Notes: generated by a model not told the origin, from the letters alone. 64,000 nucleotides of DNA from a virus (IMGVR_UViG_2718218305_000006), one strand, 5' to 3'; counted from the stretch's first letter, positions 3,594 through 32,619 are shown. Made by a program: numbers and translations.

Positions 3594-3659
3594 AAATGTC
3601 TCACAATTCAGGCGGTTGACTGTTGTCTGGTTTGCGGGGAGTTTGTTAAAAGAAACTGG

Positions 3660-6684: not shown

Positions 6685-6900
6685 ATGTACCAGATGGAAA
6701 AAATCACAACGGGTGTGTCATACACCACGTCAGCGGTGGGGACGGGATACTGGTTACTGCAGCTGCTGGACAAAGTCTCTCCGTCCCAGTGGGTGGCGAT
6801 AGGTGTGCTGGGGAGTCTGCTGTTTGGCCTGCTGACGTATCTGACTAACCTGTATTTCAAAATTAAAGAGGACCGTCGCAAGGCTGCCCGGGGAGATTAG
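6685..6900 (+). CDS. S: class II holin (phage 21 S-like pinholin), dual-start
   Basis: 71 aa, [10 protein letters not shown].. with two in-frame Met codons (antiholin/holin pattern); resembles phage 21 S holin as recalled. Confidence 0.85.
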
Positions 6901-6903
6901 GTG

Positions 6904-7461
6904 ATGAACCATGAAGAAATGAATCAGCGCTTCAGTCGTCTGGAAAATGAAATTGCTGAACTGAATAAAAAACTGTCGACGCTGATGCCTTCTGAAGATG
7001 AAAAAAAACGCCGCGATGAGCAGTTTGCTGCGTTTGACGATTATTGTCGGAAAGTGATGAGCAGAAATCTCTCAGAGTGTTTCAGTATTCATAATGATAA
7101 TTTCAGTGAGCTGGAATGGGAGTGTAACCGGCCATCCTTTGTTGTATCCGGTGATGCTGGGAAAATAACCATCTCAGAAAATGGAAAAGTAACACCGCCA
7201 TCGCACCAGCATAGTGAGGAGCTCATTGAATTTGCCATTGATTACCTGAAGAACAATAAAAAACAGGGGCTGATGAAGTGCATTGGTCGTTGCATGGGAT
7301 ATCTGCAGATAGCTGCTGAGATTGAAGCGCTGGCCAGTGGTGCGGACAAGGATGCAGTTGTGCGGGAGGCTCTTCTTCGTGAGTTTGACAACCCGCCCTT
7401 TAAAAAAGTGCCGGCTTACTGGTTTCATCCAGGACTGACTTATCTTAAAGGACGTATATAA
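6904..7461 (+). CDS. hypothetical protein inserted between holin and endolysin
   Basis: 185 aa; N-terminal coiled-coil-like segment (ENEIAELNKKLSTL); no family recognised; tightly packed after the holin stop. Confidence 0.5.
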   Translation: MNHEEMNQRFSRLENEIAELNKKLSTLMPSEDEKKRRDEQFAAFDDYCRKVMSRNLSECFSIHNDNFSELEWECNRPSFVVSGDAGKITISENGKVTPPSHQHSEELIEFAIDYLKNNKKQGLMKCIGRCMGYLQIAAEIEALASGADKDAVVREALLREFDNPPFKKVPAYWFHPGLTYLKGRI

Positions 7462-7503
7462 GCTGGCTCGTTATCTGTTGCCGATAAATCCTGATAAATA
7501 TCC

Positions 7504-8037
7504 ATGAACACCAAAATCAAATACGGCCTGTCGGCTGCCGTTCTGGCGCTGATTGCCGCTGGTGCGCCTGCGCCTGACATTCTCGACCAGTTTCTGGATG
7601 AAAAGGAAGGTAACCACACCACGGCATACCGTGATGGTGCGGGTATCTGGACCATCTGCCGAGGTGCCATCATGGTGGATGGTAAGCCTGTGATTCCTGG
7701 CATGAAGCTGTCGAAGGAAAAATGCGACCGGGTTAACGCCATTGAGCGTGATAAGGCGCTGGCATGGGTGGAGAAAAACATCAAAGTGCCACTGACCGAA
7801 CCCCAGAAAGCGGGTATTGCGTCATTCTGTCCTTACAACATTGGCCCAGGTAAGTGTTTCCCGTCGACGTTTTATAAACGAATTAATGCAGGTGATCGCA
7901 GGGGAGCGTGTGAGGCGATTCGCTGGTGGATTAAGGACGGTGGGCGTGATTGCCGCACACGTTCAAATAACTGCTACGGACAGGTTATTCGTCGTGACCA
8001 GGAAAGCGCATTAGCTTGTTGGGGGATAGATCAGTGA
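7504..8037 (+). CDS. R: SAR endolysin (lysozyme R)
   Basis: 177 aa; N-terminal signal-anchor-release segment [16 protein letters not shown] then lysozyme-like domain; near-identical to 48943..49476. Confidence 0.85.
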
Positions 8038-8501
8038 GAAGAGTAACCGCGATTATTTACGCTCTGGTTATCTGCATCATCGTCTGTCTGTTATGGGCTG
8101 TTAATCATTACCGCGATAACGCCATCACCTACAAAGCGCAGCGCGATAAAAAAGCCAGAGAGCTGGAACAGGCGAATGCCACCATTACTGACATGCAGGT
8201 GCGCCAGCGTGATGTTGCTGCGCTCGATGCAAAATACTCGAAGGAATTAGCCGATGCGAGAGCTGAAAATGAAACTCTGCGTGCTGATGTTGCCGCTGGT
8301 CGTAAGCGCCTGCGGATCAACGCCACCTGCCACGGTACCGTGCGTGAAGCCACCGGCACCTCCGGCGTGGATAATGCAACCGGCCCCCGACTGGCAGACA
8401 CCGCTGAACGGGATTATTTCATCCTCAGAGAACGGTTGATGATGATGCAGAAGCAGCTGGAAGGGGCGCAGGAATATATCCGCACTCAGTGTATTAACTA
8501 G
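8034..8501 (+). CDS. Rz: i-spanin Rz
   Basis: GTG start overlapping the R stop; N-terminal TM then coiled-coil; embedded Rz1 in +1 frame. Confidence 0.8.
8269..8439 (+). CDS. Rz1: o-spanin Rz1 (lipoprotein), embedded in Rz
   Basis: [15 protein letters not shown] lipobox followed by a Pro-rich segment, entirely inside Rz. Confidence 0.65.
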
Positions 8502-16770: not shown

Positions 16771-17169
16771 ATGAAACACCGTGAAATACGGGCGGCAGTT
16801 CTGTCTGCCCTGAAAGAAAATATTTCTGAGAGGGTGAGCTGGTTTGACGGTCGCCCGGTTTTTATTGATGAACAGGAACTGCCTGCTGTTGCTGTTTACC
16901 TGACAGATGCGTCTGCTGCTGACGAGTTCGTTGATGAGGGAACCTGGGAGGCGACACTGCATATTGAGGTTTTTCTCAGGGCAAAAGAACCGGACTCGGC
17001 ACTGGATATGTGGATGGAAGAAAAAATTCTTCCTGCGCTGGAGGCAGTTCCCGGGCTCAGTGCATTACTGCTGAAGATGAATCTTCAGGGGTATGACTAC
17101 CGCCGGGATGATGAGTTTATGATGTGGGGATCGGCAGATCTCCTGTGGAAAATTACCTACGAGATGTGA
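16771..17169 (+). CDS. U: tail terminator protein U
   Basis: 132 aa, homologous to 60722..61117 (lambda U pattern ..YDYRRDD..ITYEM). Confidence 0.8.
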
Positions 17170-17176
17170 GGACGAT

Positions 17177-17929
17177 ATGGCAACACCAAATCCCCTTGAG
17201 CCGGTAAAAGGTGCCGGTACCACTCTGTGGGTTTACAACGGCAAGGGTGATGCTTATGCAAACCCGTTGTCAGACGATGACTGGCAGCGACTGGCTAAGG
17301 TGAAGGATCTGACGCCGGGCGAGATGACGGCAGAACCCTACGATGATAACTACCTGGATGATGAAGACGCGGACTGGACCGCGACCGGGCAGGGGCAGAA
17401 GTCTGCAGGAGATACCAGTTTTACGCTGGCCTGGAAACCGGGAGAAGAAGGTCAGAAAGGGCTTATAGGCTGGTTTGAAAGCGGGGATGTGCGGGCCTAT
17501 AAAATCCGTTTCCCAAATGGCACGGTGGATGTGTTCCGTGGCTGGGTCAGCAGTATCGGTAAGGCCGTGACGGCGAAAGAAGTGATCACCCGCACGGTGA
17601 AAGTCACTAACGTGGGCAAACCTTCCGTGGCGGAAGAACGCAGCGAAATTACGCCGGCCACTGCAATTAAGGTGACACCGACATCCGGTACGGTGGCAAA
17701 AGGGAAAACAACCACCCTGACGGTTTCTTTTGAGCCGGAAAGTGCAACCGACAAGACGTTCAGAGCGGTTTCCGCCGATCCGTCGAAAGCCACCATTAGT
17801 GTGAAAGATATGACAATTACGGTAAACGGCGTGGCGACAGGTAAGGTGCAGATCCCTGTGGTGAGCGGAAATGGTCAGTTCGCCGCAGTGGCTGAAGTCA
17901 CCGTTACTGAAGCGGGCGCTGCAGGGTAA
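17177..17929 (+). CDS. V: major tail protein V (with C-terminal Ig-like domain)
   Basis: 250 aa; translation identical to 61125..61877. Confidence 0.9.
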
Positions 17930-17942
17930 ACGGAGGTAATAC

Positions 17943-18365
17943 ATGTTTCTGAAAACAGAACAATTTGAATATAACGGTGTGTCCGTCACGCTTTCCGAAT
18001 TGTCTGCGCTGCAGCGGTTTGATTATATGAAGTTTGTTTCAGACGCAGCACAACAGAAGACAACGAAGCATAATGCCGTGCACATTAACCAGCGATATCT
18101 GGAAACGGCATCCCTGCTTGTGGCGATGTCGCTATGGCATTCCCATTCCCTCAAAGGCACTCTGGCCTCTCCGGAGACAGAGATGCAGCAGATCCGCCGT
18201 GAAGTGATGCTGGGATGGCCTGCTGATGCACTGAATCAGGCAACGAACCGGGTGCTTTATCTTTCAGGTATGCTGGATAACCGGCACGATGCCGATCCTG
18301 AACCAACCGGGAAAGCAGAAGCGACAGAGCCGGTAACATCAAAAAAGCATTCGAAGGTGAGCTGA
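17943..18365 (+). CDS. G: tail assembly chaperone G
   Basis: MFLKTEQFEYNGVSVTLSELSALQR.. lambda G-like; slippery heptamer near the 3' end. Confidence 0.85.
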   Translation: MFLKTEQFEYNGVSVTLSELSALQRFDYMKFVSDAAQQKTTKHNAVHINQRYLETASLLVAMSLWHSHSLKGTLASPETEMQQIRREVMLGWPADALNQATNRVLYLSGMLDNRHDADPEPTGKAEATEPVTSKKHSKVS

Positions 18366-18700
18366 ACTTTGTCCTGAAACTGGCGCGTGAGATGGGGAGA
18401 GCCGACTGGCGCGCCATGCTTGCCGGGATGACATCCACCGAATATGCCGACTGGCGACGTTTTTACTGCACGCATTATTTTCAGGATACCCAGCTGGATA
18501 TGCATTTTTCCGGGCTGACGTACGCCGTACTCAGCCTGTTTTTTTGCGATCCGGATATGCATCCGGCGGATTTCAGCCTGTTCGCTCCGGAGGCAGAGGA
18601 AGGACAGGCGGAGACGCCGGACGAAAATGATGTACTGATGCAGAAGGCGGCGGGCCTCGCCGGTGGAGTCCGTTTCGGGGAGGAGGGAAGGAGGTTGTGA
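18341..18700 (+). CDS. T: T segment of the G-T fusion (reached by -1 frameshift)
   Basis: A AAA AAG heptamer at 18341..18347 in the G frame; -1 frame reads KKAFEGELNFVLKLAREMGRADWRAML.. (lambda T-like) to a stop at 18700. Confidence 0.65.
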   Translation, partial: KKAFEGELNFVLKLAREMGRADWRAMLAGMTSTEYADWRRFYCTHYFQDTQLDMHFSGLTYAVLSLFFCDPDMHPADFSLFAPEAEEGQAETPDENDVLMQKAAGLAGGVRFGEEGRRL

Positions 18701-18734
18701 CAGTTATTGATGGTATCAGAGGACATTTCAGGAG

Positions 18735-21389
18735 GTGACCACGATGGCAGGTAATTTTGCCGATCTGACAGCCGTGCTGACACTGGATTCTGCCCGTTTT
18801 TCTGAAGAGGCAGCGCGGGTAAAAAAAGAGCTGGGTGAAACCAGTGCGCTTGCTGATTTGATGTCCGGGAAAGTCAGTCAGTCTTTCAGAAAACAGGCTG
18901 ATGCTGCTGAGCAGAGTCTGAGCCGACAGGCGCTGGCTGCACAAAAAGCCGGGATATCAGTCGGACAGTATAAGGCTGCCATGCGCACACTGCCCGCACA
19001 GTTCACGGATATTGTCACTCAGCTTGCCGGTGGTCAGAATCCCTTCCTTATCATGCTGCAGCAGGGGGGGCAGATCAGCGATTCATTCGGTGGACCGCTC
19101 AGCCTGCTTACCCTGCTGAAGGAGGAACTTCTCGGGATCAGGGATGCCTCTGAATCATCAGAGGAGTCGCTGTCAGATACGGCAAATGCACTGGCTGAAA
19201 ATGCCCGGAATGCCGGTGAGCTGGGACGATTTATGTCGGTGGCCCGTGTGGCGGCAGGTGGCGGGGTTGCCGTACTGGCCGCGCTTGCTGCCGCCGCCTG
19301 GCAGGCAGAGCAGGCTGACCGGGCCTTATTGCGTTCACTGACCCTGACCGGAGGGGCTGCTGCCACCACAACGGCAGAATTGTGGAAAATGGCCGGGGTG
19401 ATCAGCGATGAAGCCGGTGGTGGTATCAGACAGGCGGCAGAAAATCTGGCCCGTCTGGCAGAAAGCGGGAAATATACCGCCGGGCAGCTACGGATCATGG
19501 GGGAAACCTCTCAGAGATGGCTGCAGACGGTGGGGGACGATGCCGGGAAGGTGGAAAAAGCCTTTGAAGGGATTGCAGCAGATCCGGTGAAGGCGCTGGC
19601 CTCCCTGAATCAGCAGTATAACTTCCTGAGCGTTTCCCAGTTACGCCATATTGATGAGCTTGAGCGCACGAAAGGTAAACAGGCTGCGGTGACGGAGGCG
19701 ATGTCCCTGTTTGCGGATGTCATGAATGCACGTCTGGAGCAACTTGATAAAGCGGCCACGCCGGTGGAAAAAATCTGGGACGATGTTAAAACCTGGACTT
19801 CTGACGCATGGGCATGGATAGGTGATCATACACTGGGGGCACTCAGTCTGATCACTGACGTGGTGGCAGGAACCGTTGAACAGGTGAAGCTGCTGCTTGT
19901 GCAGGGGGATCTGGCGCTGGCTGAATTTATTCAGTCAGCCTGGGAAACGACAAAGAATGTGCCCGGCGTTGGTGCGTTGTTTGGTGAACTGGCAGAAGAG
20001 AACCGCGTATTTATTGAGAAAACAAAACGCGATGAACTGGCGCTGAGAAAATCCATTGCGGAACGGGATGCGCGTATACGCCAGGGGGAAATGGGGTACA
20101 TCAACCGTTCGCGTGCAACAGGCGTCAGCAAAGGTCCGGGGCAGCAGGAAGCCGTCAGCCGTCTGGCTGAAGAGCTGACAGGTAAAAAGCATACATCACC
20201 GAAAACGCGCTCTGCCGGGGAGAGGGAAGAGGAGCAGGCAAGAGAGGCTCTGCTTGCCCTTGAAGCTGAGCTCAGGACGCTGGAAAAACACAGCGGTGCG
20301 AATGAGAAAATCAGCCGGCAGCGCCGTGATTTATGGAAGGCGGAAAGTCAGTATGCGGTCCTGAAAGAGGCTGCCACGAAACGACAGTTATCTGAGCAGG
20401 AAAAATCCCTGCTGGCGCATAAAGACGAGACGCTGGAGTACAAACGCCAGCTGGCTGAGCTGGGCGACAAGGTTGAATACCAGAAACGCCTGAATGAGCT
20501 GGCACAGCAGGCGGTGCGGTTTGAAGAGCAGCAGAGCGCGAAGCAGGCCGCCATCAGCGCAAAAGCCCGCGGTCTCACTGACCGTCAGGCGCAGCGGGAG
20601 TCTGAAGCGCAGCGTCTTCGGGACGTGTACGGTGATAATCCGGCTGCGCTGGCGAAGGCCACATCGGCACTGAAGAACACCTGGTCTGCGGAGGAGCAGC
20701 TTCGTGGAAGCTGGCTGGCCGGGCTGAAGTCCGGCTGGGGGGAGTGGGCGGAAAGTGCGACGGACAGTTTTTCGCAGGTTAAAAGTGCTGCCACGCAGAC
20801 CTTTGACGGTATTGCACAGAATATGGCGGCGATGCTGACCGGTGCAGAGGCAGACTGGCGGGGATTCACCCGTTCGGTGCTGTCCATGATGACAGAAATC
20901 CTGCTTAAACAGGCCATGGTGGGCATTGTCGGGCGTATCGGCAGCGCCATTGGCGGTGCTTTCGGTGGTGGTGCATCTGCTTCCTCGGGGACGGCCATTG
21001 AGGCTGCGGCGGCGAACTTCCATTTCGCGACCGGAGGATTTACGGGGACGGGCGGCAAATATGAGCCTGCGGGGATAGTTCACCGCGGGGAGTTTGTTTT
21101 CACGAAAGAGGCAACCAGCCGGATAGGTGTGGGGAATCTTTACCGTCTGATGCGCGGCTATGCGGAAGGTGGTTATGTGGGTGGTGCCGGAAGTCCGGCG
21201 CAGATGCGGCGGGCGGAAGGTATTAATTTTAATCAGAACAATCACGTGGTGATTCAGAACGACGGCACCAACGGACAGGCGGGGCCGCAGCTGATGAAGG
21301 CGGTGTATGACATGGCCCGCAAGGGGGCGCAGGATGAGCTCCGGCTGCAGTTGCGTGATGGCGGTATGTTATCGGGGAGCGGGCGATGA
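18735..21389 (+). CDS. H: tail tape measure protein H
   Basis: 884 aa; C-terminal half colinear with lambda H (..LWKAESQ..HKDETLEYKRQLA..FHFATGGFTGTGGKYEPAGIVHRGEFVFTKEAT..). Confidence 0.9.
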   Translation: MTTMAGNFADLTAVLTLDSARFSEEAARVKKELGETSALADLMSGKVSQSFRKQADAAEQSLSRQALAAQKAGISVGQYKAAMRTLPAQFTDIVTQLAGGQNPFLIMLQQGGQISDSFGGPLSLLTLLKEELLGIRDASESSEESLSDTANALAENARNAGELGRFMSVARVAAGGGVAVLAALAAAAWQAEQADRALLRSLTLTGGAAATTTAELWKMAGVISDEAGGGIRQAAENLARLAESGKYTAGQLRIMGETSQRWLQTVGDDAGKVEKAFEGIAADPVKALASLNQQYNFLSVSQLRHIDELERTKGKQAAVTEAMSLFADVMNARLEQLDKAATPVEKIWDDVKTWTSDAWAWIGDHTLGALSLITDVVAGTVEQVKLLLVQGDLALAEFIQSAWETTKNVPGVGALFGELAEENRVFIEKTKRDELALRKSIAERDARIRQGEMGYINRSRATGVSKGPGQQEAVSRLAEELTGKKHTSPKTRSAGEREEEQAREALLALEAELRTLEKHSGANEKISRQRRDLWKAESQYAVLKEAATKRQLSEQEKSLLAHKDETLEYKRQLAELGDKVEYQKRLNELAQQAVRFEEQQSAKQAAISAKARGLTDRQAQRESEAQRLRDVYGDNPAALAKATSALKNTWSAEEQLRGSWLAGLKSGWGEWAESATDSFSQVKSAATQTFDGIAQNMAAMLTGAEADWRGFTRSVLSMMTEILLKQAMVGIVGRIGSAIGGAFGGGASASSGTAIEAAAANFHFATGGFTGTGGKYEPAGIVHRGEFVFTKEATSRIGVGNLYRLMRGYAEGGYVGGAGSPAQMRRAEGINFNQNNHVVIQNDGTNGQAGPQLMKAVYDMARKGAQDELRLQLRDGGMLSGSGR

Positions 21390-21715
21390 AAACATTTCGC
21401 TGGAAAGTGAAGCCGGATATGGAGGTGAACTCGCAGCCGTCGGTGCGTGAAGTGCGTTTTGGTGACGGGTACTCACAGCGTATGGCGGCAGGGCTGAATG
21501 CTGACCTGAAAACATACCGTGTGACGCTTTCCGTGACCCGGGAGGAGGCCCGGCATCTGGAAGCGTTCCTGGCAGAGCACGGAGGCTGGAAGGCATTTTT
21601 GTGGAAGCCACCCTATGCATACCGGCAGATAAAGGTGACCTGTGCCGGGTGGTCTGCGCGGGTCGGGATGTTGCGCGTTGAGTTCAGCGCGGAGTTTAAG
21701 CAGGTGGTGAACTGA
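21386..21715 (+). CDS. M: minor tail protein M
   Basis: 109 aa, lambda order after H. Confidence 0.85.
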   Translation: MKTFRWKVKPDMEVNSQPSVREVRFGDGYSQRMAAGLNADLKTYRVTLSVTREEARHLEAFLAEHGGWKAFLWKPPYAYRQIKVTCAGWSARVGMLRVEFSAEFKQVVN

Positions 21716-22413
21716 TGCAGGATATCCACGAAGAAAGTCTTAACGAGTCGGTAAAATCAGAGCAGTCACCGCGGGTGGTGCTCTGGGAAATTGACCTGAC
21801 GGTGCAGGGCGGTGAGCGCTATTTTTTCTGCAATGAGCTGAATGAAAAAGGGGAGGCGGTCACCTGGCAGGGGCGGCAATATCAGGCATACCCGATTGAC
21901 GGCAGTGGCTTTGAGATGAACGGGAAGGGCAGCAGTGCCAGACCGTCGCTGACGGTGTCCAATCTGTTTGGTCTGGTCACCGGGATGGCGGAGGACCTGC
22001 AGAGCCTGGTGGGGGCCACGGTGGTCCGCCGCCGGGTGTATGCCCGTTTTCTGGATGCGGTGAATTTTGTGGCGGGCAATCCGGAAGCGGACCCGGAGCA
22101 GGAGCTGAGCGACCGCTGGGTGGTGGAGCAGATGTCAGAGCTGACGGCCATGACAGCCTCGTTTGTGCTGGCAACACCGACGGAGACGGACGGGGCGCTG
22201 TTTCCTGGTCGCATCATGCTGGCGAACACCTGTATGTGGGATTACCGGGGAGATGAATGCGGGTATAACGGTCCTGCGGTGGCGGATGAGTTCGACAACC
22301 CCACCACGGATATCCGTAAGGACAGATGCAGCAAGTGCATGCGCGGGTGTGAGATGCGCGGCATGGTGGCTAATTTTGGCGGTTTCCTTTCCATTAATAA
22401 ACTTTCGCAGTAA
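21715..22413 (+). CDS. L: minor tail protein L
   Basis: 232 aa with C-terminal Cys cluster, lambda order. Confidence 0.85.
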   Translation: MQDIHEESLNESVKSEQSPRVVLWEIDLTVQGGERYFFCNELNEKGEAVTWQGRQYQAYPIDGSGFEMNGKGSSARPSLTVSNLFGLVTGMAEDLQSLVGATVVRRRVYARFLDAVNFVAGNPEADPEQELSDRWVVEQMSELTAMTASFVLATPTETDGALFPGRIMLANTCMWDYRGDECGYNGPAVADEFDNPTTDIRKDRCSKCMRGCEMRGMVANFGGFLSINKLSQ

Positions 22414-22423
22414 ATCCCGGTTT

Positions 22424-23167
22424 ATGACACAGACTGAATCAGCGATTCTGGCGCATGCCCGGCGGTGTGCGCCTGCGGAGTCGTGCGGCTTCGTGGTGAG
22501 AACGCCGGAGGGGGAGCGGTATATCCCTTGTGTGAATATCTCTGCAGAGCCGGAGGCGTATTTTCGTATTGCACCGGAAGACTGGCTGCGGGCAGAGATG
22601 CAGGGGGAGATTGTGGCACTGGTCCACAGTCATCCCGGTGGTCTGCCCTGGCTGAGCGAGGCCGACCGGCGGCTGCAGATAAAAAGTGCACTGTCCTGGT
22701 GGCTGGTCTGCCGGGGGGACATTCATAAATTCCGCTGTGTGCCACATCTGACAGGACGGCTCTTTGAGCACGGGGTGACGGACTGTTACACGCTGTTCCG
22801 GGATGCATACCATCTGGCGGGGACTGAAATGCCGGATTTTCATCGCGAGGATGACTGGTGGCGCAACGGCCAGAACCTGTACCTGGACAATATGGAGGGA
22901 ACGGGCTTTTACCGGGTGCCCCTGTCCTCTGCACAGGCGGGCGATATTCTGCTGTGCTGCTTTGGTGCTTCGGTACCGAACCATGCCGCCATTTACTGTG
23001 GCAACGGTGAGCTGCTTCACCATCTGCCTGAACAACTGAGTAAACGGGAGAGGTATTCCGAAAAATGGCAACGACGAACGCATTCTGTCTGGCGTCACCG
23101 CCACTGGCACGCATCTGCCTTCACGGGGATTTACAACGATTTGGCCGCCGCCTCAGCCTGTATGTGA
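22424..23167 (+). CDS. K: tail assembly protein K (MPN/NlpC-P60 domains)
   Basis: MTQTESAILAHARRCAPAESCGF..HSHPGG.. lambda K-like; the ORF-track upstream extension is not used. Confidence 0.85.
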   Translation: MTQTESAILAHARRCAPAESCGFVVRTPEGERYIPCVNISAEPEAYFRIAPEDWLRAEMQGEIVALVHSHPGGLPWLSEADRRLQIKSALSWWLVCRGDIHKFRCVPHLTGRLFEHGVTDCYTLFRDAYHLAGTEMPDFHREDDWWRNGQNLYLDNMEGTGFYRVPLSSAQAGDILLCCFGASVPNHAAIYCGNGELLHHLPEQLSKRERYSEKWQRRTHSVWRHRHWHASAFTGIYNDLAAASACM

Positions 23168-23742
23168 ACACGGCAGCGGAAGCCATCCGGGCGCTGTCGT
23201 TACAGGTGCCCGGATTCCGCCGTCAGATGAACGAAGGCTGGTACCAGATACGTATTGCCGGTGATGACACGGCACCGGAGGCGGTGTACGCCCGTCTTCA
23301 CGAACAGCTGGGTGAGGGAACGGTCATCCACATTGTGCCGCGACTGGCCGGGGCCGGAAAGGGTGGACTGCAGATTGTGCTGGGGGCGGCAGCCATCGTG
23401 GGCTCTTTCTTCACTGCCGGGGCATCGATGGCGTTATGGGGTTCAGCCCTGGCAGCCGGTGGTTTTTCTGCCACCACGATGCTGTTTTCTCTGGGGGCCA
23501 GCATGATTCTGGGTGGTGTGGCCCAGATGCTGGCCCCGAAGGCAAAAACACCGGATTACCGCGCAACGGATAACGGCAGACAGAACACGTACTTTTCGTC
23601 ACTGGACAACATGATTGCCCAGGGTAACCCGATGCCGGTGCCTTATGGTGAAATGCTGGTTGGTTCACGACGGATATCCCAGGACATCAGCACCCGTGAT
23701 GAGGGCGGAGACGGGAAAGTGGTGGTTATCGGGCGGGGATGA
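23065..23742 (+). CDS. I: tail assembly protein I
   Basis: 225 aa, ..ARICLHGDLQRFGRR..QNTYFSSLDNM..; overlaps the K 3' end as in lambda. Confidence 0.8.
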   Translation: MATTNAFCLASPPLARICLHGDLQRFGRRLSLYVNTAAEAIRALSLQVPGFRRQMNEGWYQIRIAGDDTAPEAVYARLHEQLGEGTVIHIVPRLAGAGKGGLQIVLGAAAIVGSFFTAGASMALWGSALAAGGFSATTMLFSLGASMILGGVAQMLAPKAKTPDYRATDNGRQNTYFSSLDNMIAQGNPMPVPYGEMLVGSRRISQDISTRDEGGDGKVVVIGRG

Positions 23743-23982
23743 AAATAAAAAAATCCCGCAGAGTTAGCGGAGCTGCGGGAGAGAACGATGAAGATTAACG
23801 TTATGGAGTTATTTTTCAGGCATCAAAAAAGTAACGCAGCGTCATTATTGCGGCTACAGGCAATTGCCGGAAATGTGAAGAGTTTCAGAAATTTTATTCC
23901 GTCATGACACAGGCACCCTCCGGGGTGCCTGTTGTTTTCTGGCATAAACAGATTCAGACATCAGACAGGAGAGGGGGACAGA

Positions 23983-26900
23983 GTGGGTAAAGGGGGCGGC
24001 AAGGGGCACACGCCGGTAGAGGCAAAGGACAATCTTAAGTCCACGCAGATGATGAGCGTGATTGACGCCATTGGTGAAGGGCCGATTGAAGGTCCGGTGA
24101 AGGGGCTGCAGAGTATCCTGGTGAACAAAACCCCGCTGACGGACACGGACGGTAATCCCGTGATACACGGTGTGACCGCGGTCTGGCGTGCCGGGGAGCA
24201 GGAGCAGACACCGCCGGAAGGTTTTGAGTCCTCCGGAGCTGAAACCGCACTGGGCGTGGAAGTGACGAAGGCAAAGCCGGTGACGCGCACCATTACGTCC
24301 GCGAACATTGACCGCCTGCGGGTCACCTTCGGGGTGCAGTCACTGGTGCAGACCACGTCAAAGGGTGACCGAAACCCGACATCCGTCCGCCTGCTGATTC
24401 AGTTACAGCGTAACGGTAACTGGGTGACGGAAAAGGATGTCACCATTAACGGCAAGACAACCTCGCAGTTTCTGGCGTCGGTGATTCTGGATAATCTGCC
24501 TCCCCGTCCTTTTAACATCCGGATGGTCAGGGAGACGGCGGACAGCACCACGGACCAGCTGCAGAATAAGACGCTGTGGTCGTCATACACCGAAATCATC
24601 GATGTGAAACAGTGCTACCCGAACACGGCTATTGTGGGGCTGCAGGTGGATGCGGAGCAGTTCGGCGGCCAGCAGATGACGGTGAACTACCATATCCGCG
24701 GTCGCATCATCCAGGTGCCGTCAAACTATGACCCGGAAAAACGCACGTACAGTGGTATCTGGGACGGTAGCCTGAAACCGGCATACAGCAATAACCCGGC
24801 CTGGTGCCTGTGGGACATGCTGACCCACCCGCGCTACGGAATGGGAAAACGCCTGGGGGCGGCGGATGTGGACAAGTGGGCGCTGTATGCCATTGCGCAG
24901 TACTGCGACCAGATGGTCCCTGATGGTTTCGGGGGCACAGAGCCGCGGATGACCTTTAATGCGTACCTGTCACAACAGCGTAAGGCGTGGGATGTGCTCA
25001 GTGATTTCTGCTCGGCGATGCGCTGTATGCCGGTATGGAACGGCCAGACGCTGACGTTCGTTCAGGACCGCCCGTCGGATGTGGTGTGGCCGTACACCAA
25101 CAGCGATGTGGTGGTGGATGATAACGGCGTGGGGTTTCGCTACAGCTTCAGCGCCCTGAAGGACCGCCACACGGCGGTGGAGGTGAATTACACCGACCCG
25201 CAGAACGGCTGGCAGACCTCCACGGAACTGGTGGAAGACCCGGAAGCCATACTGCGCTACGGGCGCAACCTGCTGAAGATGGATGCGTTCGGCTGCACCA
25301 GTCGCGGTCAGGCCCACCGTGCCGGGCTGTGGGTGATAAAGACCGGACTGCTGGAAACGCAGACGGTGGATTTCACGCTCGGGTCACAGGGGCTGCGTCA
25401 CACACCCGGTGACATTATTGAAATCTGTGATAACGACTATGCCGGGACCATGACCGGCGGACGTATCCTGTCCATCGATGCCGCCAGCCGCACCCTGACG
25501 CTGGACCGTGAGGTGACCCTGCCGGAGACCGGTGCCGCCACGGTGAACCTGATTAACGGCAGCGGTAAGCCGGTGAGTGTGGACATCACCGCACACCCCG
25601 CGCCGGACCGGATACAGGTCAGCACCCTGCCGGATGGCGTGGAGACATACGGTGTGTGGGGGCTCTCCCTGCCGTCACTGCGTCGTCGCCTGTTCCGCTG
25701 TGTCTCCATACGGGAAAACACGGACGGCACCTTTGCCATCACGGCGGTGCAGCACGTACCGGAAAAAGAAGCCATCGTGGATAACGGGGCCAGCTTTGAG
25801 CCGCAGTCAGGCACCCTGAACAGCGTTATTCCACCGGCAGTGCAGCACCTGACGGTGGAGGTGAGCGCGGCTGACGGTCAGTATCTGGCACAGGCGAAAT
25901 GGGACACGCCGCGGGTGGTGAAGGGTGTGCGCTTCAGTCTGCGCCTGACCAGCGGAAGCGGAGAAGACAGCCGTCTGGTGACCACCGCCATCACTGCGGA
26001 TACAGAGCATCGTTTCAGTGGTCTGCCGCCCGGGGAATACACCCTGACAGTCAGGGCAATTAACAGTTATGGCCAGCAGGGCGAACCGGCCACCACCACG
26101 TTCAGGATTAATGCACCTGCGGTACCCGCCACGATTGAGCTGACACCGGGCTATTTTCAGATAACAGCGGTCCCGCGTCTTGCGGTGTATGACCCGACGG
26201 TACAGTTTGAGTTCTGGTTTTCGGAGACAAAAATCGCAGACACATCTCAGGTGGAAACCTCTGCCCGTTATCTGGGGACCGGCAGTCAGTGGAGTGTATC
26301 CGGCCCGCACATTAAGCCCGGGAAGGATTTCTGGTTTTACGTGCGCAGCGTCAACCTGGTGGGGAAATCTGCTTTTGTGGAAGCCAGTGGCCGGGCCAGC
26401 AATGATGCAGAAGGGTATCTGGGGCTGTTTCGGGAAAAAATAGGAAAACTGCATCTGGCTCAGGGGCTGTGGGAGCTGATAGACAACAGCCAGCTTGCGG
26501 ATGAGATGGCGGAGATGAAGACCACCATCACCGAAACCCGCAATGAAATCACACAGACGGTCAGTAAAACGCTGGAAGACCAGAGCGCCACCATACAGCA
26601 GATACAGCGCGTGCAGAAGGACACAAATGATGACCTGGCTGCGCTGTACATGCTGAAGGTTCAAAAAACGAAAGACGGCATTCCCTATGTGGCCGGGATT
26701 GGTGCAGGGATTGAGGATACTGATGGCCAGCCACTGAGCAACATACTGCTGCTGGCTGACCGTATCGCGATGATAAATCCGGAGAGCGGCAACAGCACGC
26801 CGTTATTTGTGGCGCAGGGGAATCAGCTGTTCATGAACGACGTGTTCCTGAAACGACTGTTTGCGGTGAGCATCACGTCATCCGGCAATCCTCCGGCATT

Positions 26901-27459
26901 TTCCCTGACGCCGGACGGGCGACTGACGGCGAAAAATGCGGATATCAGTGGCAGTGTGAATGCGAACTCAGGGACGCTCAACAACGTCACGATTAATGAG
27001 AACTGTCAGATTAAGGGGAAACTGTCAGCCAACCAGATTGAAGGTGATATTGTCAAAACGGTCAGCAAGTCTTTCCCCCGCACGAGCACTTATGCCAGTG
27101 GCACCATCACGGTAAGAATCAGTGATGATCAGAAGTTTGACCGGCAGGTCATGATACCGCCAGTGTTATTCCGCGGTGGTAAGCATGAGAATTTCAACAG
27201 TAATAACCAACAGTCATATTGGTATTCAACCTGCCGGTTAAGAGTGACCCGCAATGGTCAGGAGATTTTTAATCAGTCCACGACGGATGCTCAGGGCGTA
27301 TTTTCCTCAGTTATAGATATGCCTGCCGGACAGGGGACGCTGACACTGACATTCACCGTATCTTCATCAGGAGCGAATAACTGGACACCAACAACCAGTA
27401 TCAGCGATCTGCTGGTTGTGGTGATGAAAAAATCCACAGCAGGTATCAGTATCAGCTGA
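23983..27459 (+). CDS. J: host specificity / central tail fibre protein J
   Basis: GTG start giving [22 protein letters not shown].. (lambda J N-terminus pattern); about 1158 aa. Confidence 0.9.
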
Positions 27460-27525
27460 ATTTTATAACCCATAACGGGCGTCAGAAATGACGCCTTTTT
27501 TATTGCAGAAAAGCGAGAGGTAATT

Positions 27526-28125
27526 ATGCGTAAACTTTATGCCGCCATTTTGTCCGCAGCCATCTGTCTGGCCGTATCCGGTGCGCCTGCATGGGCGTCT
27601 GAACATCAGTCCACGCTGAGCGCGGGCTATCTTCATGCCTCGACGAACGTTTCCGGCAGCGATGATCTGAACGGGATTAACGTGAAATACCGTTATGAGT
27701 TTACGGACACTCTGGGAATGGTGACGTCATTCAGCTATGCAGGAGACAGGAATCGCCAGCTTACCCGTTACAGCGATACCCGCTGGCATGAAGATTCCGT
27801 TCGTAACCGCTGGTTCAGCGTAATGGCGGGGCCGTCTGTGCGCGTGAATGAATGGTTCAGCGCGTATGCGATGGCGGGTGTGGCTTACAGCCGTGTGTCG
27901 ACTTTCTCCGGGGATTATCTCCGCGTAACTGACAACAAGGGGAAAACGCACGACGTGCTGACCGGAAGTGATGACGGTCGCCACAGCAACACGTCTCTGG
28001 CGTGGGGGGCTGGCGTGCAGTTTAACCCGACCGAATCCGTGGCCATTGATATTGCTTATGAAGGCTCCGGCAGTGGCGACTGGCGCACTGACGGTTTCAT
28101 CGTGGGTGTCGGTTATAAGTTCTGA
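27526..28125 (+). CDS. lom: outer membrane protein Lom (Ail/Lom family)
   Basis: Signal peptide [24 protein letters not shown], beta-barrel-like alternating pattern ending ..GVGYKF; position after J. Confidence 0.85.
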
Positions 28126-28152
28126 TTAGCCAGGTAACACAGTGTTATGACA

Positions 28153-28179
28153 GCCCGCCGGTTCAGGCGGGCTTTTTTG
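28153..28179 (+). terminator. rho-independent terminator after lom
   Basis: GCCCGCC-GGTTCA-GGCGGGC followed by TTTTTT. Confidence 0.5.
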
Positions 28180-28189
28180 TGGGGTGAAT

Positions 28190-29503
28190 ATGGCAGTAAA
28201 GATTTCAGGTGTACTGAAAGACGGCACAGGAAAACCGGTAGAGAACTGCACCATTCAACTGAAAGCCAGACGGACCAGCAGCACGGTGGTGGTGAACACG
28301 GTGGCCTCTGAAAATCCGGATGAAGCCGGTCGTTACAGCATGGACGTTGAGTACGGTCAGTACAGCGTCATTCTGTTGGTGGAGGGCTTCCCGCCGTCAC
28401 ATGCCGGGACCATCACCGTGTATGAAGATTCTCAACCCGGTACGCTGAATGATTTTCTCGGTGCCATGTCGGAGGATGACGTCCGGCCGGAGGCACTGCG
28501 CCGTTTTGAACTGATGGTGGAAGAGGTGGCGCGTCACGCTGAGGAGGCGAAGAAGAATGCCGGAGAGGCGGAGACGTCAGCGAGGAATGCCGGCATATCA
28601 GCCAGTCAGGCAGAAGAGAGCGCTGCAAATGCTGACACTTCAGCAGGGGATGCATCGGAGTCAGCCCGGCAGGCGGCAGAAAGTGCAGCCGCTGCAAAGC
28701 AGTCAGAGGAGGCGTCCTCGTCCTCGGCCTCTGCGGCCGCTCAAAAAGCCAGTGAGTCATCACAAAGTGCAGCAGAAGCTGAATTGTCAAGAAAGACGGC
28801 AGAAAGTGCAGCCGGTAATGCAGCCAGGGATGCAACGACCGCAGCAGAAAAAGCCCGGGAGTCAGCAGAAAGCGCACAGTCAGCGGAACAAAGCAGGATA
28901 GCGGCGGAAGAGGCCGTAAACCGAATCCCCACCGTGGTGGGGCCTCCCGGGCCAAAGGGGGAACAGGGTCCCGCGGGTCCTCAGGGGCCGAAGGGAGATA
29001 AAGGAGAGCGTGGCGACACCGGCCCGGCAGGGGCAACCGGTGAACGGGGGCCGGCAGGTGATGCTGGTCCGGCAGGCCCGCCGGGGCCGAAAGGTGACAG
29101 GGGAGAGCGGGGAGAGACCGGTCTGACGGGAAATGCAGGTCCACAGGGTCCAAAGGGAGATACCGGTGCGGCAGGCCCGGCAGGCCCACAGGGACCGAAA
29201 GGAGAAACAGGTGCGGCTGGCCCGGTGGGGGCGACCGGACCTCAGGGACCGAAGGGCGACCCGGGGGAGACGCAAATACGGTTCCGTCTGGGGCCGGGAA
29301 ACATTATTGAGACAAACAGCCATGGCTGGTTCCCGGATACAGATGGCGCACTCATCACCGGACTGACCTTTCTTGACCCCAAAGATGCCACACGGGTTCA
29401 GGGTTTTTTTCAGCATTTGCAGGTCAGGTTTGGTGACGGGCCGTGGCAGGATGTTAAGGGGCTGGATGAAGTGGGCAGTGATACAGGCAGAACAGGAGAA
29501 TGA
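28190..29503 (+). CDS. side tail fibre-like protein with collagen-like Gly-X-Y repeats
   Basis: Ala/Ser/Glu-rich coiled segment then long GPxGxxGxxG triplet run (about 28930..29280). Confidence 0.7.
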
Positions 29504-29506
29504 CAT

Positions 29507-29774
29507 GAACATATTAAAAAAAATTATGCAGCGTCTGTGTGGTTGCGGAAAGCATGATGACCGTGAACACGGGGAGTTACTTACAGCACAGCTGCGACTG
29601 GGACCGGCAGACATCCTGGAGTCAGATGAGAATGGCATTATCCCGGAGCAGGACAGGGTAATCACGCAGGTGGTGATACTGGATGCGGATAAAAAGCAGA
29701 TACAGTGCGTGGTAAGACCGCTGCAAATCCTGCGTGCTGACGGGACGTGGGAAAATATTGGCGGGATGAAGTAA
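29507..29774 (+). CDS. hypothetical protein (88 aa) downstream of tail fibre gene
   Basis: Internal ATG of ORF 29373..29774 just after the fibre stop; [19 protein letters not shown].. Confidence 0.35.
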
Positions 29775-29792
29775 CCCGACAGCTTCACAAAA

Positions 29793-29814
29793 CCGGAGTC
29801 CGGCTCCGGTTTTG
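29793..29814 (+). terminator. rho-independent terminator
   Basis: CCGGAG-TCCGG-CTCCGG hairpin followed by TTTTGTG. Confidence 0.45.
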
Positions 29815-30140
29815 TGTTGCAATGTCCGGGGGATATTTGTTAAGTAGATTGTATTGTATGTAAAGGCAGAGCTCCGAATTTTACTGTTGTAAGTGGGCCT
29901 GGCGGGAATGGTATCGCCAGCATCATTGGCTTGGGTCCAGTAAAAAGAGACGCAGAAAGATGCACAATAGGCACTACGCGTCATGCATGGATTAGGTCGC
30001 TCATTATTTACACAGTACTGCTAAAAAATTATTAAGGAAAGCGCGGCACTTCGTATGTAAGAGCGTGTCGCGGTTGGCTGGTGAACTTTCGATAGTGCGA
30101 GTATTGAATGATTTCCAGCCGTTACCGATTTACGTGTTTA

Positions 30141-30347
30141 TTAGCGAACAAACCACTCGTCAGCAGACTCCCAGGTATCTTTCAGCGTCTCCTGAACAAA
30201 AGTTTTTGCAGAATCTTTATCGGCGGTGCGAGTAACTGAAAGGCCATCGTTGCTGGTGGATTTGATGATCACTTCTACATCGTCATAACGTTTACTGACA
30301 CGTCGCAGCATTTCTTGTTGCAGGGCAGGAACAGAACCTTTTGGCAT
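30141..30347 (-). CDS. DinI-like protein
   Basis: 68-aa product from an internal ATG; C-terminus ..[20 protein letters not shown] resembles the DinI family end (..ILQETWESADDWFV). Confidence 0.6.
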
Positions 30348-30560
30348 TTTGTTGATTTTGGCTGCGGGGTATCTGTGGGGCATATATGGGACATAAAAAG
30401 GCCTCAAATAAACAGCAAAATCGAGATTAGGGATTTTTAGAAAAAATACAACCATCTGAAAAAACTTAGAAAACACCCAAAAACCCACAGAATAGTAAAA
30501 AACATCTATGAATTATGGATTTCAAGAGTCATTCAATCTAACTAATTGATAAATAAAAAA

Positions 30561-31112
30561 TTAACTTTTCATCGCTTCGTTATGGGGCATGGTTGGGGCA
30601 AACTCGCTTAACTGTGTATTTAACAGCGTTACCTGCGCATTATTATTTTCTGACATCCATTTCCCGTACACCTGAAACACCATTTGCGCATCTGCATGGC
30701 CCATCTGGTTTGCAATGAATGCCGGGTTAGCTCCTGCTGTTAACGACCAGCAGGCATAAGTGTGTCTCGACTGATACGATTTGCGATGGCGGATTCCGGC
30801 ACGCTTTACCGCTGCGTCCCACATCTGCCTTATTGAGTCAACGGTAAAATGGTCGCCATAATTTTTTACTTTCGCTGACACTTCAGGTTGAAAAACAAAG
30901 GTACATTTTTGTTTCTCTGTTCTGCCGAATTCTCTGAGGTGAACATCGATGATATGCTCTTTGCTCAGTCTCGTTAGTGCCATCTGACTCCGGAGAGCGT
31001 CGATTGCGGGCTTAATAAGGTGAATCACACGATTGGTTCCCGCCTGTGTTTTTGGTACTGTAAAACGGTCTTTTGCCAGATTTCTTCTGATTATCATTCT
31101 GCCATTGCGCAA
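30561..31112 (-). pseudogene. int: tyrosine integrase remnant, C-terminal catalytic half only
   Basis: ..TVPKTQAGTNRVIHL..SRHTYACWSLTAGANPAFIANQMGHADAQMVFQVYGKWM carries K/H-R-H-Y box residues; in-frame stop 6 codons upstream of the start; arm- and core-binding domains absent. Confidence 0.7.
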
Positions 31113-32338
31113 GATGGTTGCGGTTTTTCTTCATCATTTTCTTCTTCTGTTTCCTGCTTAGCAGACAGTTCGCGGTTAACTTCTTCCAGGATATCTTTTT
31201 CCGGTGTATGTCGTGCAGCAGTGAGAGTTTCCTTGCTGGGGTTCTCGTGATCAGTCTCCGTTAAGTAGGCGTTGATATACCCCTGAAGGCGTCCCGGGTA
31301 GTGATAAAACTCAGGGTGAGCGCTCCGGATAAGTGCAAAAATAGCGGCGCGGGAATAGTCCAGAATACCCGGGGTTGCGCGAAGTGCTGCGGACCATTCT
31401 TTGAACGGACTTTCTCTTTTCAGGACGATTTCTTTTGCGCGACGATAAACGCTGCCCGGAATTTCATAAATATTAAAATCCATCGGAAGTGTGGCTGCTG
31501 CAATCTCCACATCCAGCGTATCGAAGGTGTGTACTAAATTCGGATTGCGATCGGTTTTGTTCCCGCCACCGGCATTTGCACCGGAAGCCGTACGGGTGAT
31601 ACGCGAAACACGATTTCCTTTCATCCACTCTTTTGTCAGCAGACCCCGATCAGTGTAGTCAGCGTCCAGGTATGCCTCGAAAAAAGCAGTTATCAGTCCC
31701 AGGTCTGAATTACCGGGATTAGGGAAAACTTTGTCAGTGTCGCGTACCAGTTTGTGAAGGTCGCGAATCTCCAGCGGGTCGAGCAGCTTTGTTTTGTGAG
31801 AAATGGCCAGGGCAGTAACAGCCGGCAGTTCTTCCGCCCGTGCTATATGTAATGCCTGAAGTTCTTCCCGTGCAACGTGCGTTACTGGTTTTTCGCTGCC
31901 GTGTTGCGCAAGCCAGCGAATGGGCAGCTCCTGACCAGAAACCGGCAGGAGCATATTCTCCTCAATCTCCGTCATGTCTTCGCCGTTGACGTTGGTATTG
32001 TCAGTACTGGCTGGTTTCTCCTGCACGGAGGGAGAGGGCGCGATAAATACCATTGTAATGCCATCTTCCCCGCCTTTTTCGTATCGGTTGCAGAATTCGG
32101 TATCAAACACGCCTTCAGGTGGAAGGTCATTCACAACGGGTAAATGGACGCGAACGGGTTTTTTAAAGTCGTCTTCATCATAATCGTTGTCATCCATTGC
32201 GGTAATGCAGCGGGAGATGGCAACAGATAATTTTTTTGCTGTAGTCCAGTAAAAACCACCTTTAATTCCCAGACGTTTTCTGACTTTGTCATTTTTTGCT
32301 TCGCAATATAGCGCAAATTCTTCTTTATCAGTGCTCAT
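31094..32338 (-). CDS. hypothetical acidic protein (414 aa), ydfE-like position in a Qin-type operon
   Basis: Intact 1245-nt ORF overlapping the integrase remnant by 19 nt in another frame; Asp/Glu-rich stretches; no motif recognised. Confidence 0.55.
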   Translation of the reverse strand: MSTDKEEFALYCEAKNDKVRKRLGIKGGFYWTTAKKLSVAISRCITAMDDNDYDEDDFKKPVRVHLPVVNDLPPEGVFDTEFCNRYEKGGEDGITMVFIAPSPSVQEKPASTDNTNVNGEDMTEIEENMLLPVSGQELPIRWLAQHGSEKPVTHVAREELQALHIARAEELPAVTALAISHKTKLLDPLEIRDLHKLVRDTDKVFPNPGNSDLGLITAFFEAYLDADYTDRGLLTKEWMKGNRVSRITRTASGANAGGGNKTDRNPNLVHTFDTLDVEIAAATLPMDFNIYEIPGSVYRRAKEIVLKRESPFKEWSAALRATPGILDYSRAAIFALIRSAHPEFYHYPGRLQGYINAYLTETDHENPSKETLTAARHTPEKDILEEVNRELSAKQETEEENDEEKPQPSCAMAE

Positions 32339-32430
32339 TGATAAACCTCATTACAGATTTAAGGGTGAACAAATCCCTGCCATTGCTGGCATTTTTAATC
32401 CGTTGGTATGGTGTTAATATGGCTGGAGGG

Positions 32431-32619
32431 TTATCCAGCCGGTGTTTCGTTATTCAGGTACAGCGATACTTTTTTTACCGGGAGGCATTCACCAGAAATT
32501 TTTTGCTCGTCTCTTGCCTGGAGGCAGGATTCTTTACTGGCATAAATTCCGGTAATCACATTCTGTGATTCACCCGTTATAAGAAAAACCGTCATCATCA
32601 GTGCAAATGCTGAAGTCAT
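32431..32619 (-). CDS. YdfD-like small protein with N-terminal hydrophobic segment
   Basis: 62 aa, MTSAFALMMTVFLITG..; ATGA overlap with dicB; position as ydfD in the Qin dicB operon. Confidence 0.5.
   Translation of the reverse strand: MTSAFALMMTVFLITGESQNVITGIYASKESCLQARDEQKISGECLPVKKVSLYLNNETPAG

Follow-up and report, generated by a model that had tools for sequence, protein, structure and literature searches.

The modular mosaicism of lambdoid phages is reportedly rooted in Botstein's modular theory and in the work of Juhala et al. in 2000 and of Hendrix. The closest described system to the locus analysed here is the tandem pair of prophages Sp12 and Sp11 in Escherichia coli O157:H7 Sakai, together with the compound prophage of UK O157 isolates at the same locus; Sp12 is described as the same as, or a homologue of, CP-933P in EDL933 (PMC8630535). 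Spontaneous Sp11-Sp12 deletions are attributed to Chen et al. 2013 (AEM 79:1934) in passages of PMC7430833 and PMC8743559, and a 50-kb indel via homologous recombination has been described in an Sp11/Sp12-like compound prophage (PMC7645076). Further reports concern a deletion between adjacent prophages with its ends in direct repeats (PMC7430833) and prophage-flanked rearrangements via homologous recombination (PMC8743559). Work on prophage-mediated chromosomal rearrangements in O157 by Iguchi et al. 2006 (Gene 372:199) and by Fitzgerald et al. 2021 (PMC8743559) deals mainly with inversions between distant inverted copies.

We analysed a stretch of 64,000 nucleotides (the window), which comprises two distinct lambdoid prophages arranged in tandem, head-to-tail and both on the plus strand, in an O157-type E. 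coli chromosome (Table 1). The second of these is Sp11, as indicated by colinear near-identity (12 mismatches and no gaps in 33,761 nt over window positions 30240–64000) and by the same defects in the window and in Sakai: an int fragment of 183 aa matching ECs_2217 and an Exonuc_VIII fragment matching ECs_2216. The assignment was made on 30240–64000, with the rightmost 12.3 kb of Sp11 falling outside the window. Pfam matches identified truncated int and exoVIII, lambda-type Nu1/A/E head genes and pchB, and an exact lambda cosN 12-mer is found at 52216–52227. The orientation and the boundary are also those of Sakai: its Sp11 annotation starts at the match to window position 30523, and the right boundary of prophage 1 coincides with the annotated Sp12/Sp11 boundary.

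Prophage 1 occupies the chromosomal slot held by Sp12 in Sakai, but the phage itself differs. Its assignment as Sp12 was rejected, as the head and the V-G-T-H region are different (Sp12 exhibits a 717-nt V and a 3,243-nt H); what the two have in common is limited to their position and the far right end (dinI), and neither the nleG genes nor the IS elements found at the right end of Sp12 are present in prophage 1. The best matches to window positions 1–25000 do not include Sakai, with the top match (96.9% over 93%) coming from another strain. Prophage 1 is 98.1% identical to the Stx2a prophage of O157:H- 493/89 over 3737–27017 and 97.8% identical to prophage 1 of O157:H7 Z885 over 8095–29849. 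Prophage 1 does not qualify as a Stx-converting phage, since a search for stx from the Q-like gene (1922–2488) to nanS-p (4033–5979) revealed only an ORF6N-domain ORF and tRNA-like fragments; the likeness to the 493/89 phage starts at 3737, downstream of its stx2B. The tandem junction (27000–37000) is found at a coverage of at least 80% in 13 complete genomes. Among 5,426 complete E. coli genomes none carries the entire arrangement; Z885 comes nearest at the junction, with an extra 1,417-bp nleC cassette that prophage 1 does not have. In common with the Sakai pair and the UK compound prophage, the window pair displays long direct repeats between neighbours, at a locus with reported deletions by homologous recombination. 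The shared segments are different: the Sakai pair shares the tRNA-nanS-p-lysis region (6.2 kb, 96.8%) and the J region (87–93%) but not V-G-T-H, whilst the window pair shares a block from V through the tail fibre.

Table 1. Positions in the window of the two prophages, the segments they share and associated features.
Feature	Coordinates	Strand	Content and partner
Prophage 1	1–30522	+	Lambdoid; left end cut off by window start; DUF1441/gpA-type terminase, ClpP-major capsid fusion head
Prophage 2 (Sp11 of O157:H7 Sakai)	30523–64000	+	Right part cut off by window end
Early-late junction module	476–2378	+	DUF968 495–1559, rusA 1560–1925, Q-like DUF1133 1922–2488; partner 41405–43298
Lysis genes	6685–8501	+	Holin 6685–6900, endolysin R 7504–8037, Rz 8034–8501; partners holin 48337–48543, R 48943–49476, Rz 50474–50932
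Repeat block A, copy 1	17152–18535	+	Last 18 nt of U, V 17177–17929, G 17943–18365, 5' two-thirds of T frame
Repeat block A, copy 2	61100–62483	+	Sp11 V 61125–61877, G 61891–62313, 5' part of T
A AAA AAG heptamer, predicted -1 programmed frameshift site	18341–18347	+	16 nt before G stop codon
Diverged cassette	18536–18903	+	T C-terminus, T/H junction, first ~55 codons of H; partner 62484–62860
Repeat block B, copy 1	18904–20043	+	H from codon ~57 on; partner 62861–64000, cut by window end
Probable repeat continuation in prophage 1	20044–29842	+	Rest of H, M, L, K, I, J, lom, tail fibre; partner beyond window end

Repeats were identified by self-blastn and an identity profile of the window, using shuffled sequences as control: exact repeats reach a length of 564 bp, compared to a maximum of 14–18 bp in 20 shuffles, and the identity between the copies is thus far beyond chance. 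The direct repeats between the prophages exhibit an offset of 43,948–43,957 bp, confirming that they lie tens of kb apart in the same orientation. Block A begins abruptly at a gene boundary (17152–17158, 19–25 nt before the start of V), where identity jumps from ~60% to 100%; the U proteins of the two prophages are identical at only 78 of 132 aa. Its copies are ~99% identical, differing at 19 of 1,378 nt and matching without interruption over 564, 306 and 227 bp, and copy 2 is identical to ECs_2169–2167 of Sakai Sp11. The Pfam content of the block (Phage_TTP_12 with Big_2, Phage_TAC_2, Phage_tail_T) and the tape-measure gene directly downstream characterise a lambda-like tail module (U-V-G/GT-H): V is a lambda V-type major tail tube protein (Phage_TTP_12, E = 1e-68; C-terminal Big_2), G the tail chaperone (Phage_TAC_2, 1.6e-34), followed by the T domain in the -1 frame (Phage_tail_T, 1.4e-12), and the H ORF (18735–21389) encodes the tape-measure protein (TMP_2, 1.2e-45; Tape_meas_lam_C, 2.1e-20).

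The original prediction, which held the V proteins to be identical and G, the T segment and the 5' part of H to be near-identical, was correct for V and G. The sole DNA difference in V is a synonymous G/T at 17722, and G is 97.6% identical in DNA with 10 nt and 8 aa differences (132 of 140 aa). In case of T, it applies to the 5' part, whose beginning is identical between copies (like H from 18904 on, the G-T frameshift region shows 99–100% identity), but not to the C-terminal part, which diverges from ~18536 and is 35 aa shorter in copy 1 than in copy 2. H shows the reverse arrangement: the first ~55 codons are diverged with indels, and near-identity (99.1%) holds from codon ~57. The cassette that interrupts the repeat displays about 45–70% identity with indels, with values of 40–81% in the identity profile, and its copy 1 form recurs in ASU11, in VT1-Sakai and in numerous Stx phages. 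Beyond it, the copies of block B differ by 10 mismatches without gaps (exact runs of 403 and 325 bp). The end of the near-identical segments, placed at 19650 by the original prediction, is meaningless as an end, since identity continues past this point to the window end for copy 2, corresponding to 20043.

For Sp11 beyond position 64000 we used Sakai Sp11 as a proxy. Prophage 1 matches it at 96.5% over 18904–29089 and at 92% over 29066–29842, and against the whole of Sp11 it exhibits 128 exact runs of at least 25 bp with a sum of 11.8 kb, the longest being 573 bp at 20109. By this proxy, the repeat probably spans ~12.7 kb in all, from V through M-L-K-I-J-lom and the tail fibre.

A frameshift between G and T is said to be conserved in lambda-like tails, according to Xu, Hendrix and Duda in 2004, and by analogy we take A AAA AAG to be the G-T frameshift site of both copies (62289–62295 in copy 2). 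The T frame corresponds to the G frame -1 and is open only from 18302 in copy 1 and from 62277 in copy 2 (equivalent to 18329), so that the shift must fall between 18329 and 18365. GGGAAAG, the lambda slippery site, was rejected as a candidate: it is present in copy 1 only, where it is out of phase, and it precedes the point at which the T frame of copy 2 opens. The predicted G-T fusions would comprise 135 + 117 aa in copy 1 and 135 + 152 aa in copy 2, and the T segment would thus not be a separate gene.

Near-identity had also been claimed for DUF968, rusA, Q, the holin, R and Rz, and this did not hold, with identities of only 73–90% in DNA. The early-late junction modules are 81.6% identical over 1,910 nt, with DUF968 at 78.9% nt and 80.5% aa, rusA at 78.7% nt overall (94% over a shared 300 nt) and the Q-like DUF1133 at 72.5% nt and 72.9% aa. 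Self-blastn matched the lysis blocks at 94%, 89.8% and 89.3%; the genes themselves display 90.3% nt for the holin, 89.2% nt and 92.7% aa for R and 82.9% nt and 76.8% aa for Rz, and the genes in between differ.

Over the 2,518 nt of the near-identical blocks, the two copies were set against five further alleles. Copy 1 differs at a single position from the prophage of O55:H7 USDA5905 (0 in block A, 1 in block B), at 2 from phage ASU11 of O80:H2 (1+1) and at 10 from VT1-Sakai, yet at 29 from its own neighbour (19+10), which is the most distant of the compared alleles. The proposal that the two prophages are recent mosaics of each other is not supported: copy 1 is closer to alleles of other serotypes than to its neighbour, which indicates that both drew the module from a common circulating pool. 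The tail module is indeed widespread, being present in 3,636 of 5,426 complete E. coli genomes in up to 8 places per genome, with a best match of at least 99% in 384 records of the survey. It is 99.4–99.9% identical in ASU11, VT1-Sakai (Sp15), CP-1639 and several Stx2a/Stx2d phages, including Stx2a phages at yecE, with the same U-V-G-T-H genes and the short T form, and the V protein (WP_000235090.1) is annotated alike in 493/89, Z885 and USDA5905. The difference is that here the module belongs to a prophage without stx and recurs 44 kb further downstream, in the neighbour.

The alternative that gene conversion within this chromosome homogenised V-G-T-H regions of the neighbours that were once different is improbable, even though V with its single synonymous difference and the long exact runs speak for such concerted evolution. 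Z885 offers a further argument in its favour, as copy 1 of that strain is closer to Sp11 (18 differences) than is copy 1 of the window (29) and shares with Sp11 the patch 18029–18076, and some exchange of patches among alleles clearly occurs somewhere: the variable sites form a patchwise, reticulate pattern in which VT1-Sakai and Z885 agree with Sp11 at 18029–18076 but with copy 1 at 18304–18311. Conversion in place was, however, rejected in the comparison of allele distances, with the neighbour as the farthest allele, and again in a test for import into Sp11: 2 of the 12 differences between the Sp11 of the window and that of Sakai have a homologous position in copy 1, and only 1 of the 12 carries the copy 1 base. 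Copy 2 is moreover identical to Sakai Sp11, although the neighbouring Sp12 of Sakai has an unrelated V-H region.

It is less probable still that the arrangement results from assembly, be it one prophage duplicated or two unlinked prophages misjoined via their shared repeats. Such repeats are known to misassemble in O157 genomes: stx phages are described as highly similar in draft assemblies in a passage of PMC4587872, and reads were falsely mapped to homologous prophage regions (PMC7645076). The exact nleC-less junction was also found in no complete RefSeq E. coli genome, its halves each being matched by sequences that overlap by 676 bp. Against this stand the unrelated heads (a ClpP-capsid fusion versus the lambda E type), different terminases and early regions, the dissimilar U proteins and the 29 differing sites between the copies, which also diverge in the T/H cassette. 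Throughout the repeat, prophage 1 keeps colinearity with 493/89, Z885, ASU11 and VT1-Sakai, as does prophage 2 with Sakai Sp11 over 33.8 kb, and the tandem junction recurs in the complete genomes mentioned above, with Sakai possessing its own tandem Sp12-Sp11 pair. A duplication artefact is thus very unlikely, since the copies are non-identical, the head modules unrelated and each prophage colinear with independently sequenced genomes.

Very probably, then, two different tandem lambda-like prophages share a widely circulating tail-module allele that was joined to each by modular recombination, giving rise to direct repeats. A lambda-type tail module, at least 99% identical among many EHEC lambdoid and Stx phages, would have been drawn from this pool and come to lie next to unrelated head modules through the mosaic recombination typical of lambdoid phages, with the joints probably lying shortly before V begins and at the diverged T/H cassette. 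The abrupt transition at a gene boundary, a diverged cassette between near-identical flanks and reticulate alleles resemble lambdoid mosaicism with no difference in kind. The outcome is a direct repeat of probably ~12.7 kb with copies ~44 kb apart, a region that short-read assemblers are unable to resolve, in line with the anticipated assembly trouble.

The minimal efficient processing segment for recombination is ~25–30 bp. All repeats are direct, and the exact runs in the window (564, 403, 325 and 306 bp), well in excess of this length, make them a suitable recombination substrate; an inflection at 74 bp is cited in PMC7430833. Inverted repeats of at least 100 nt are absent from the window, and the direct orientation of the copies predicts deletions, duplications or excised circles rather than inversions. 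The expectation that the repeats can drive deletions is therefore upheld, in agreement with the deletions published for the Sp11-Sp12 locus, whilst that of inversions is not. The homologous prophage segments studied by Iguchi et al. 2006 and Fitzgerald et al. 2021 are likewise recombination substrates; the window pair, being direct, would instead undergo deletion, duplication or excision. For an inversion to arise, a copy in the opposite orientation would be required at another chromosomal site. No Chi site was found inside the V-H repeat; over the whole window Chi is strand-biased (15 versus 3). The mechanism that we infer at the repeat is a crossover by RecA or a phage recombinase, which would remove a single 44-kb unit, so that a hybrid prophage remains. 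There is a slim chance that the repeats also offer the integrase-defective Sp11, supposedly trapped in the chromosome, an Int-independent exit as a potentially packageable hybrid phage: recombination at any point of the V-to-fibre repeat would free a circle of ~43.95 kb, containing the complete early, replication, lysis, cos and head genes of Sp11 (pchB included) and the tail genes of prophage 1. The geometry gives a lambda-sized circle, and the viability of such a hybrid phage is speculation. In principle, the formation of hybrid phages when prophages recombine with one another is already on record for O157 (PMC2669165).

The shared tail block of these tandem prophages is real but ordinary, as such sharing is already established for O157 prophages; what the window adds is local, namely the module that is shared (V through fibre) and the different, stx-less phage in the Sp12 slot. 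Its significance is practical rather than conceptual: a direct repeat of ~12.7 kb accounts for collapse or misjoining in short-read assemblies and for mis-mapping that confounds SNP typing, and it is a likely hotspot for 44-kb deletions, which would take with them the early, lysis and head genes of Sp11, pchB among them, together with the tail genes of prophage 1.

Self-comparison of the 64-kb window returned 12 direct matches, in colinear order, that link its two halves at an offset of 40–44 kb, and no inverted repeats of at least 100 nt, with both lambdoid prophages lying in the same orientation. Positions 30240–64000 are colinear with the O157:H7 Sakai genome (12 mismatches, no gaps in 33,761 nt) and prophage 2 shares with Sakai Sp11 a truncated integrase, a truncated exoVIII, lambda-type Nu1/A/E head genes and pchB. 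Identification of prophage 1 as Sp12, the neighbour of Sp11 in Sakai, was rejected given its DUF1441/gpA terminase and ClpP-capsid fusion head. Its late region exhibits 98% identity to two other prophages, the Stx2a prophage of O157:H- 493/89 and the one that precedes Sp11 in O157:H7 Z885; prophage 1 itself contains no stx genes. The right end of prophage 1, from a dinI-like gene up to the prophage boundary (30038–30522), matches the right end of Sakai Sp11 at 97.7%, and thus right-end and att-proximal sequence is common to both prophages. Fragments at 3462–3594, between Q and nanS-p, are 88–91% similar to the Sp11 tRNA genes (compare 44708–44783 and 44884–44960); ARAGORN calls no tRNA in this interval, which looks like a decayed tRNA cluster, and whilst related phages carry tRNAs and stx2 at this position, prophage 1 has no stx there. 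The CAT-anticodon tRNA at 44708–44783 is called Met by ARAGORN and ileZ in the Sakai annotation.

Features of the tandem prophages; identities are DNA identities between copy 1 (prophage 1) and copy 2 (prophage 2)
Feature	Prophage 1	Prophage 2	Description
Prophage 1	1-30522		right end exactly at Sakai Sp12 end
Prophage 2		30523-64000	Sp11 of E. coli O157:H7 Sakai
Block A	17152-18535	61100-62483	near-identical
V	17177-17929	61125-61877	proteins identical
G	17943-18365		10 nucleotide and 8 amino-acid differences
A AAA AAG heptamer	18341-18347	62289-62295	16 nt ahead of G stop
T/H diverged cassette	18536-18903	62484-62860	T C-terminus (35 aa shorter in copy 1), T/H junction, first ~55 codons of H
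Block B	18904-20043	62861-64000	99.1%, up to where the window end cuts copy 2
DUF968			79%
rusA			79% overall; 94% over common 300 nt
Q-like DUF1133			72.5%
Holin			90%
R			89%
Rz			83%
cosN 12-mer		52216-52227	exact lambda match

The finding that V, G, the T segment and the 5' part of H are near-identical between the prophages was partly confirmed: this is the case for V, G, the 5' part of T and H from 18904 onwards, but not for the T C-terminus or the opening ~55 codons of H, where identity drops from about 18536 to 40–81% with indels. The original prediction had extended the claim to DUF968, rusA, Q, the holin, R and Rz, yet these early and lysis genes are clearly diverged (72.5–90% overall). 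Its start, 17177, is the ATG of V, whilst its end at 19650 is arbitrary, as identity runs on to 20043. Near-identity sets in abruptly at 17152–17158, within the last codons of U; upstream of this point the U proteins agree at only 78 of 132 residues and the DNA is down to about 50–70% identity. Exact repeats reach 564 bp, compared with maxima of 14–18 bp in 20 shuffles of the window. The V genes differ at a single synonymous base (17722); the differences in G lie in two short patches, 18029–18076 and 18304–18358.

In order to follow the repeat past 64000, Sakai Sp11 was used as a stand-in because it is almost identical to the Sp11 of the window. Prophage 1 aligns to the Sakai Sp11 H-M-L-K-I-J-lom-fibre region at 96.5% over 18904–29089 and at 92% over 29066–29842, and shares with this proxy 128 exact runs of at least 25 bp (11.8 kb in total), 18 of them at least 200 bp and the longest 573 bp. 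From these alignments we infer a direct repeat of ~12.7 kb spanning the whole tail module, of which the original prediction had just the first 2.9 kb in view.

Pfam matches in the tail block comprise lambda U, the V tail tube protein with a C-terminal Ig-like domain, the G chaperone, the T domain and a lambda-type tape-measure protein. T does not form a gene of its own: it is read in the -1 frame relative to G, and this frame opens no earlier than 18302 in copy 1 and the position equivalent to 18329 in copy 2. A programmed G/G-T frameshift is reportedly conserved in lambda-like tails (Xu, Hendrix and Duda 2004), and the heptamer in both copies together with the -1 T frame matches such an arrangement as a predicted site. 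RefSeq labels this T in related genomes as an incomplete pseudogene, a label that probably stems from T being produced solely through frameshifting and from its occurrence as a short variant; the mitomycin-C-induced phage ASU11 carries the same short variant as copy 1.

Repeats of this kind cause assembly problems, as originally proposed, but it is very unlikely that the arrangement is itself a duplication artefact of assembly: the heads, terminases and early regions of the prophages are unrelated, the common blocks differ at 29 sites in addition to the differing T/H cassette, either prophage can be aligned colinearly through the repeat with genomes that were sequenced independently, and the junction region is found at a coverage of at least 80% in 13 complete genomes. 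A 1,417-bp cassette of Z885 that holds the T3SS effector gene nleC is absent from the window, with a clean breakpoint at 29848–29849 and a 2-nt overlap. The exact nleC-less junction of the prophage 1 right end and Sp11 int occurs in no complete RefSeq E. coli genome; each half is matched separately, the two matches overlapping by 676 bp. Linkage of the two prophages in this strain is as read from the assembly.

Of the 5,426 complete E. coli genomes compared, 3,636 have a match to block A, in up to 8 places per genome, with a best match of at least 99% in 384 records, and 17152–20043 is 99.4–99.9% identical in ASU11 (host O80:H2), VT1-Sakai, CP-1639 and several Stx2a and Stx2d phages. Counted over the near-identical blocks (2,518 nt), copy 1 differs at 1 site from an O55:H7 prophage, at 2 from ASU11, at 10 from VT1-Sakai and at 29 from copy 2, its own neighbour and the most distant of the alleles examined. 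Copy 2 is identical to Sakai Sp11, the Sp12 next to it in that strain is unrelated in V-H, and the window Sp11 carries the base of copy 1 at just one of its 12 differences from Sakai. Therefore, the prophages are not recent mosaics of each other as had been suggested; rather, in each of them a widely circulating tail module is combined with a different head module, as in classical lambdoid mosaicism. VT1-Sakai and Z885 exhibit Sp11 bases at 18029–18076 and those of copy 1 at 18304–18311, and such mixed patches indicate short-patch exchange and patchwise reticulation among the alleles of the pool. Six of the 12 window-Sakai differences cluster within 1.3 kb of the holin-endolysin region (48312–49569), with the base of prophage 1 at one only; this cluster may stem from conversion by a further prophage of the genome, outside the window.

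Homologous recombination between the direct repeats would delete ~43.95 kb and leave a hybrid prophage, with a circle or a duplication as the reciprocal product. Because the repeats are direct, these outcomes are predicted from their geometry and the literature, and not the inversions also proposed, for which the chromosome would have to hold a copy in inverted orientation elsewhere. The earlier interpretation is thus supported for deletions, for which there are published cases: a 50-kb indel between two isolates from one patient was ascribed to homologous recombination in an Sp11/Sp12-homologous compound prophage (PMC7645076), and DNA between direct repeats was lost from adjacent prophages in a bovine strain series (PMC7430833, which refers to Chen et al. 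2013 on Sp11-Sp12 deletions arising spontaneously in Sakai). Large prophage-flanked rearrangements by homologous recombination are described for O157 (PMC8743559, where Iguchi et al. 2006 is also cited). How the lambdoid Sakai prophages resemble one another, and which defects Sp11 and Sp12 carry, is described in PMC2669165. In Sakai, Sp12 and Sp11 have in common a 6.2-kb stretch (96.8%) spanning tRNA, nanS-p and lysis genes and about 8 kb of the J region (87–93%), but not V-G-T-H; recombination substrates at this locus therefore vary between strains. The whole window contains 15 copies of Chi (GCTGGTGG) on the + strand and 3 on the - strand (chance expectation about 1 per strand), none of them inside the V-H repeat.

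The cosN 12-mer (GGGCGGCGACCT) precedes the Nu1 start (52403) by 176 nt, a distance in keeping with a lambda-type cos, and the cos sites of the two prophages probably differ, since the small terminase of prophage 1 is a different one (DUF1441). A crossover in the repeat would yield a ~44-kb circle uniting the Sp11 early, replication, lysis, cos and head genes with the tail genes of prophage 1; judged by geometry, this could conceivably let an otherwise locked-in Sp11 escape without Int, the least ordinary of the readings and an idea that is not new in principle. The repeat is a real, ordinary and already known feature, its deletion behaviour having been published both for the Sp11/Sp12 locus and for O157 generally.
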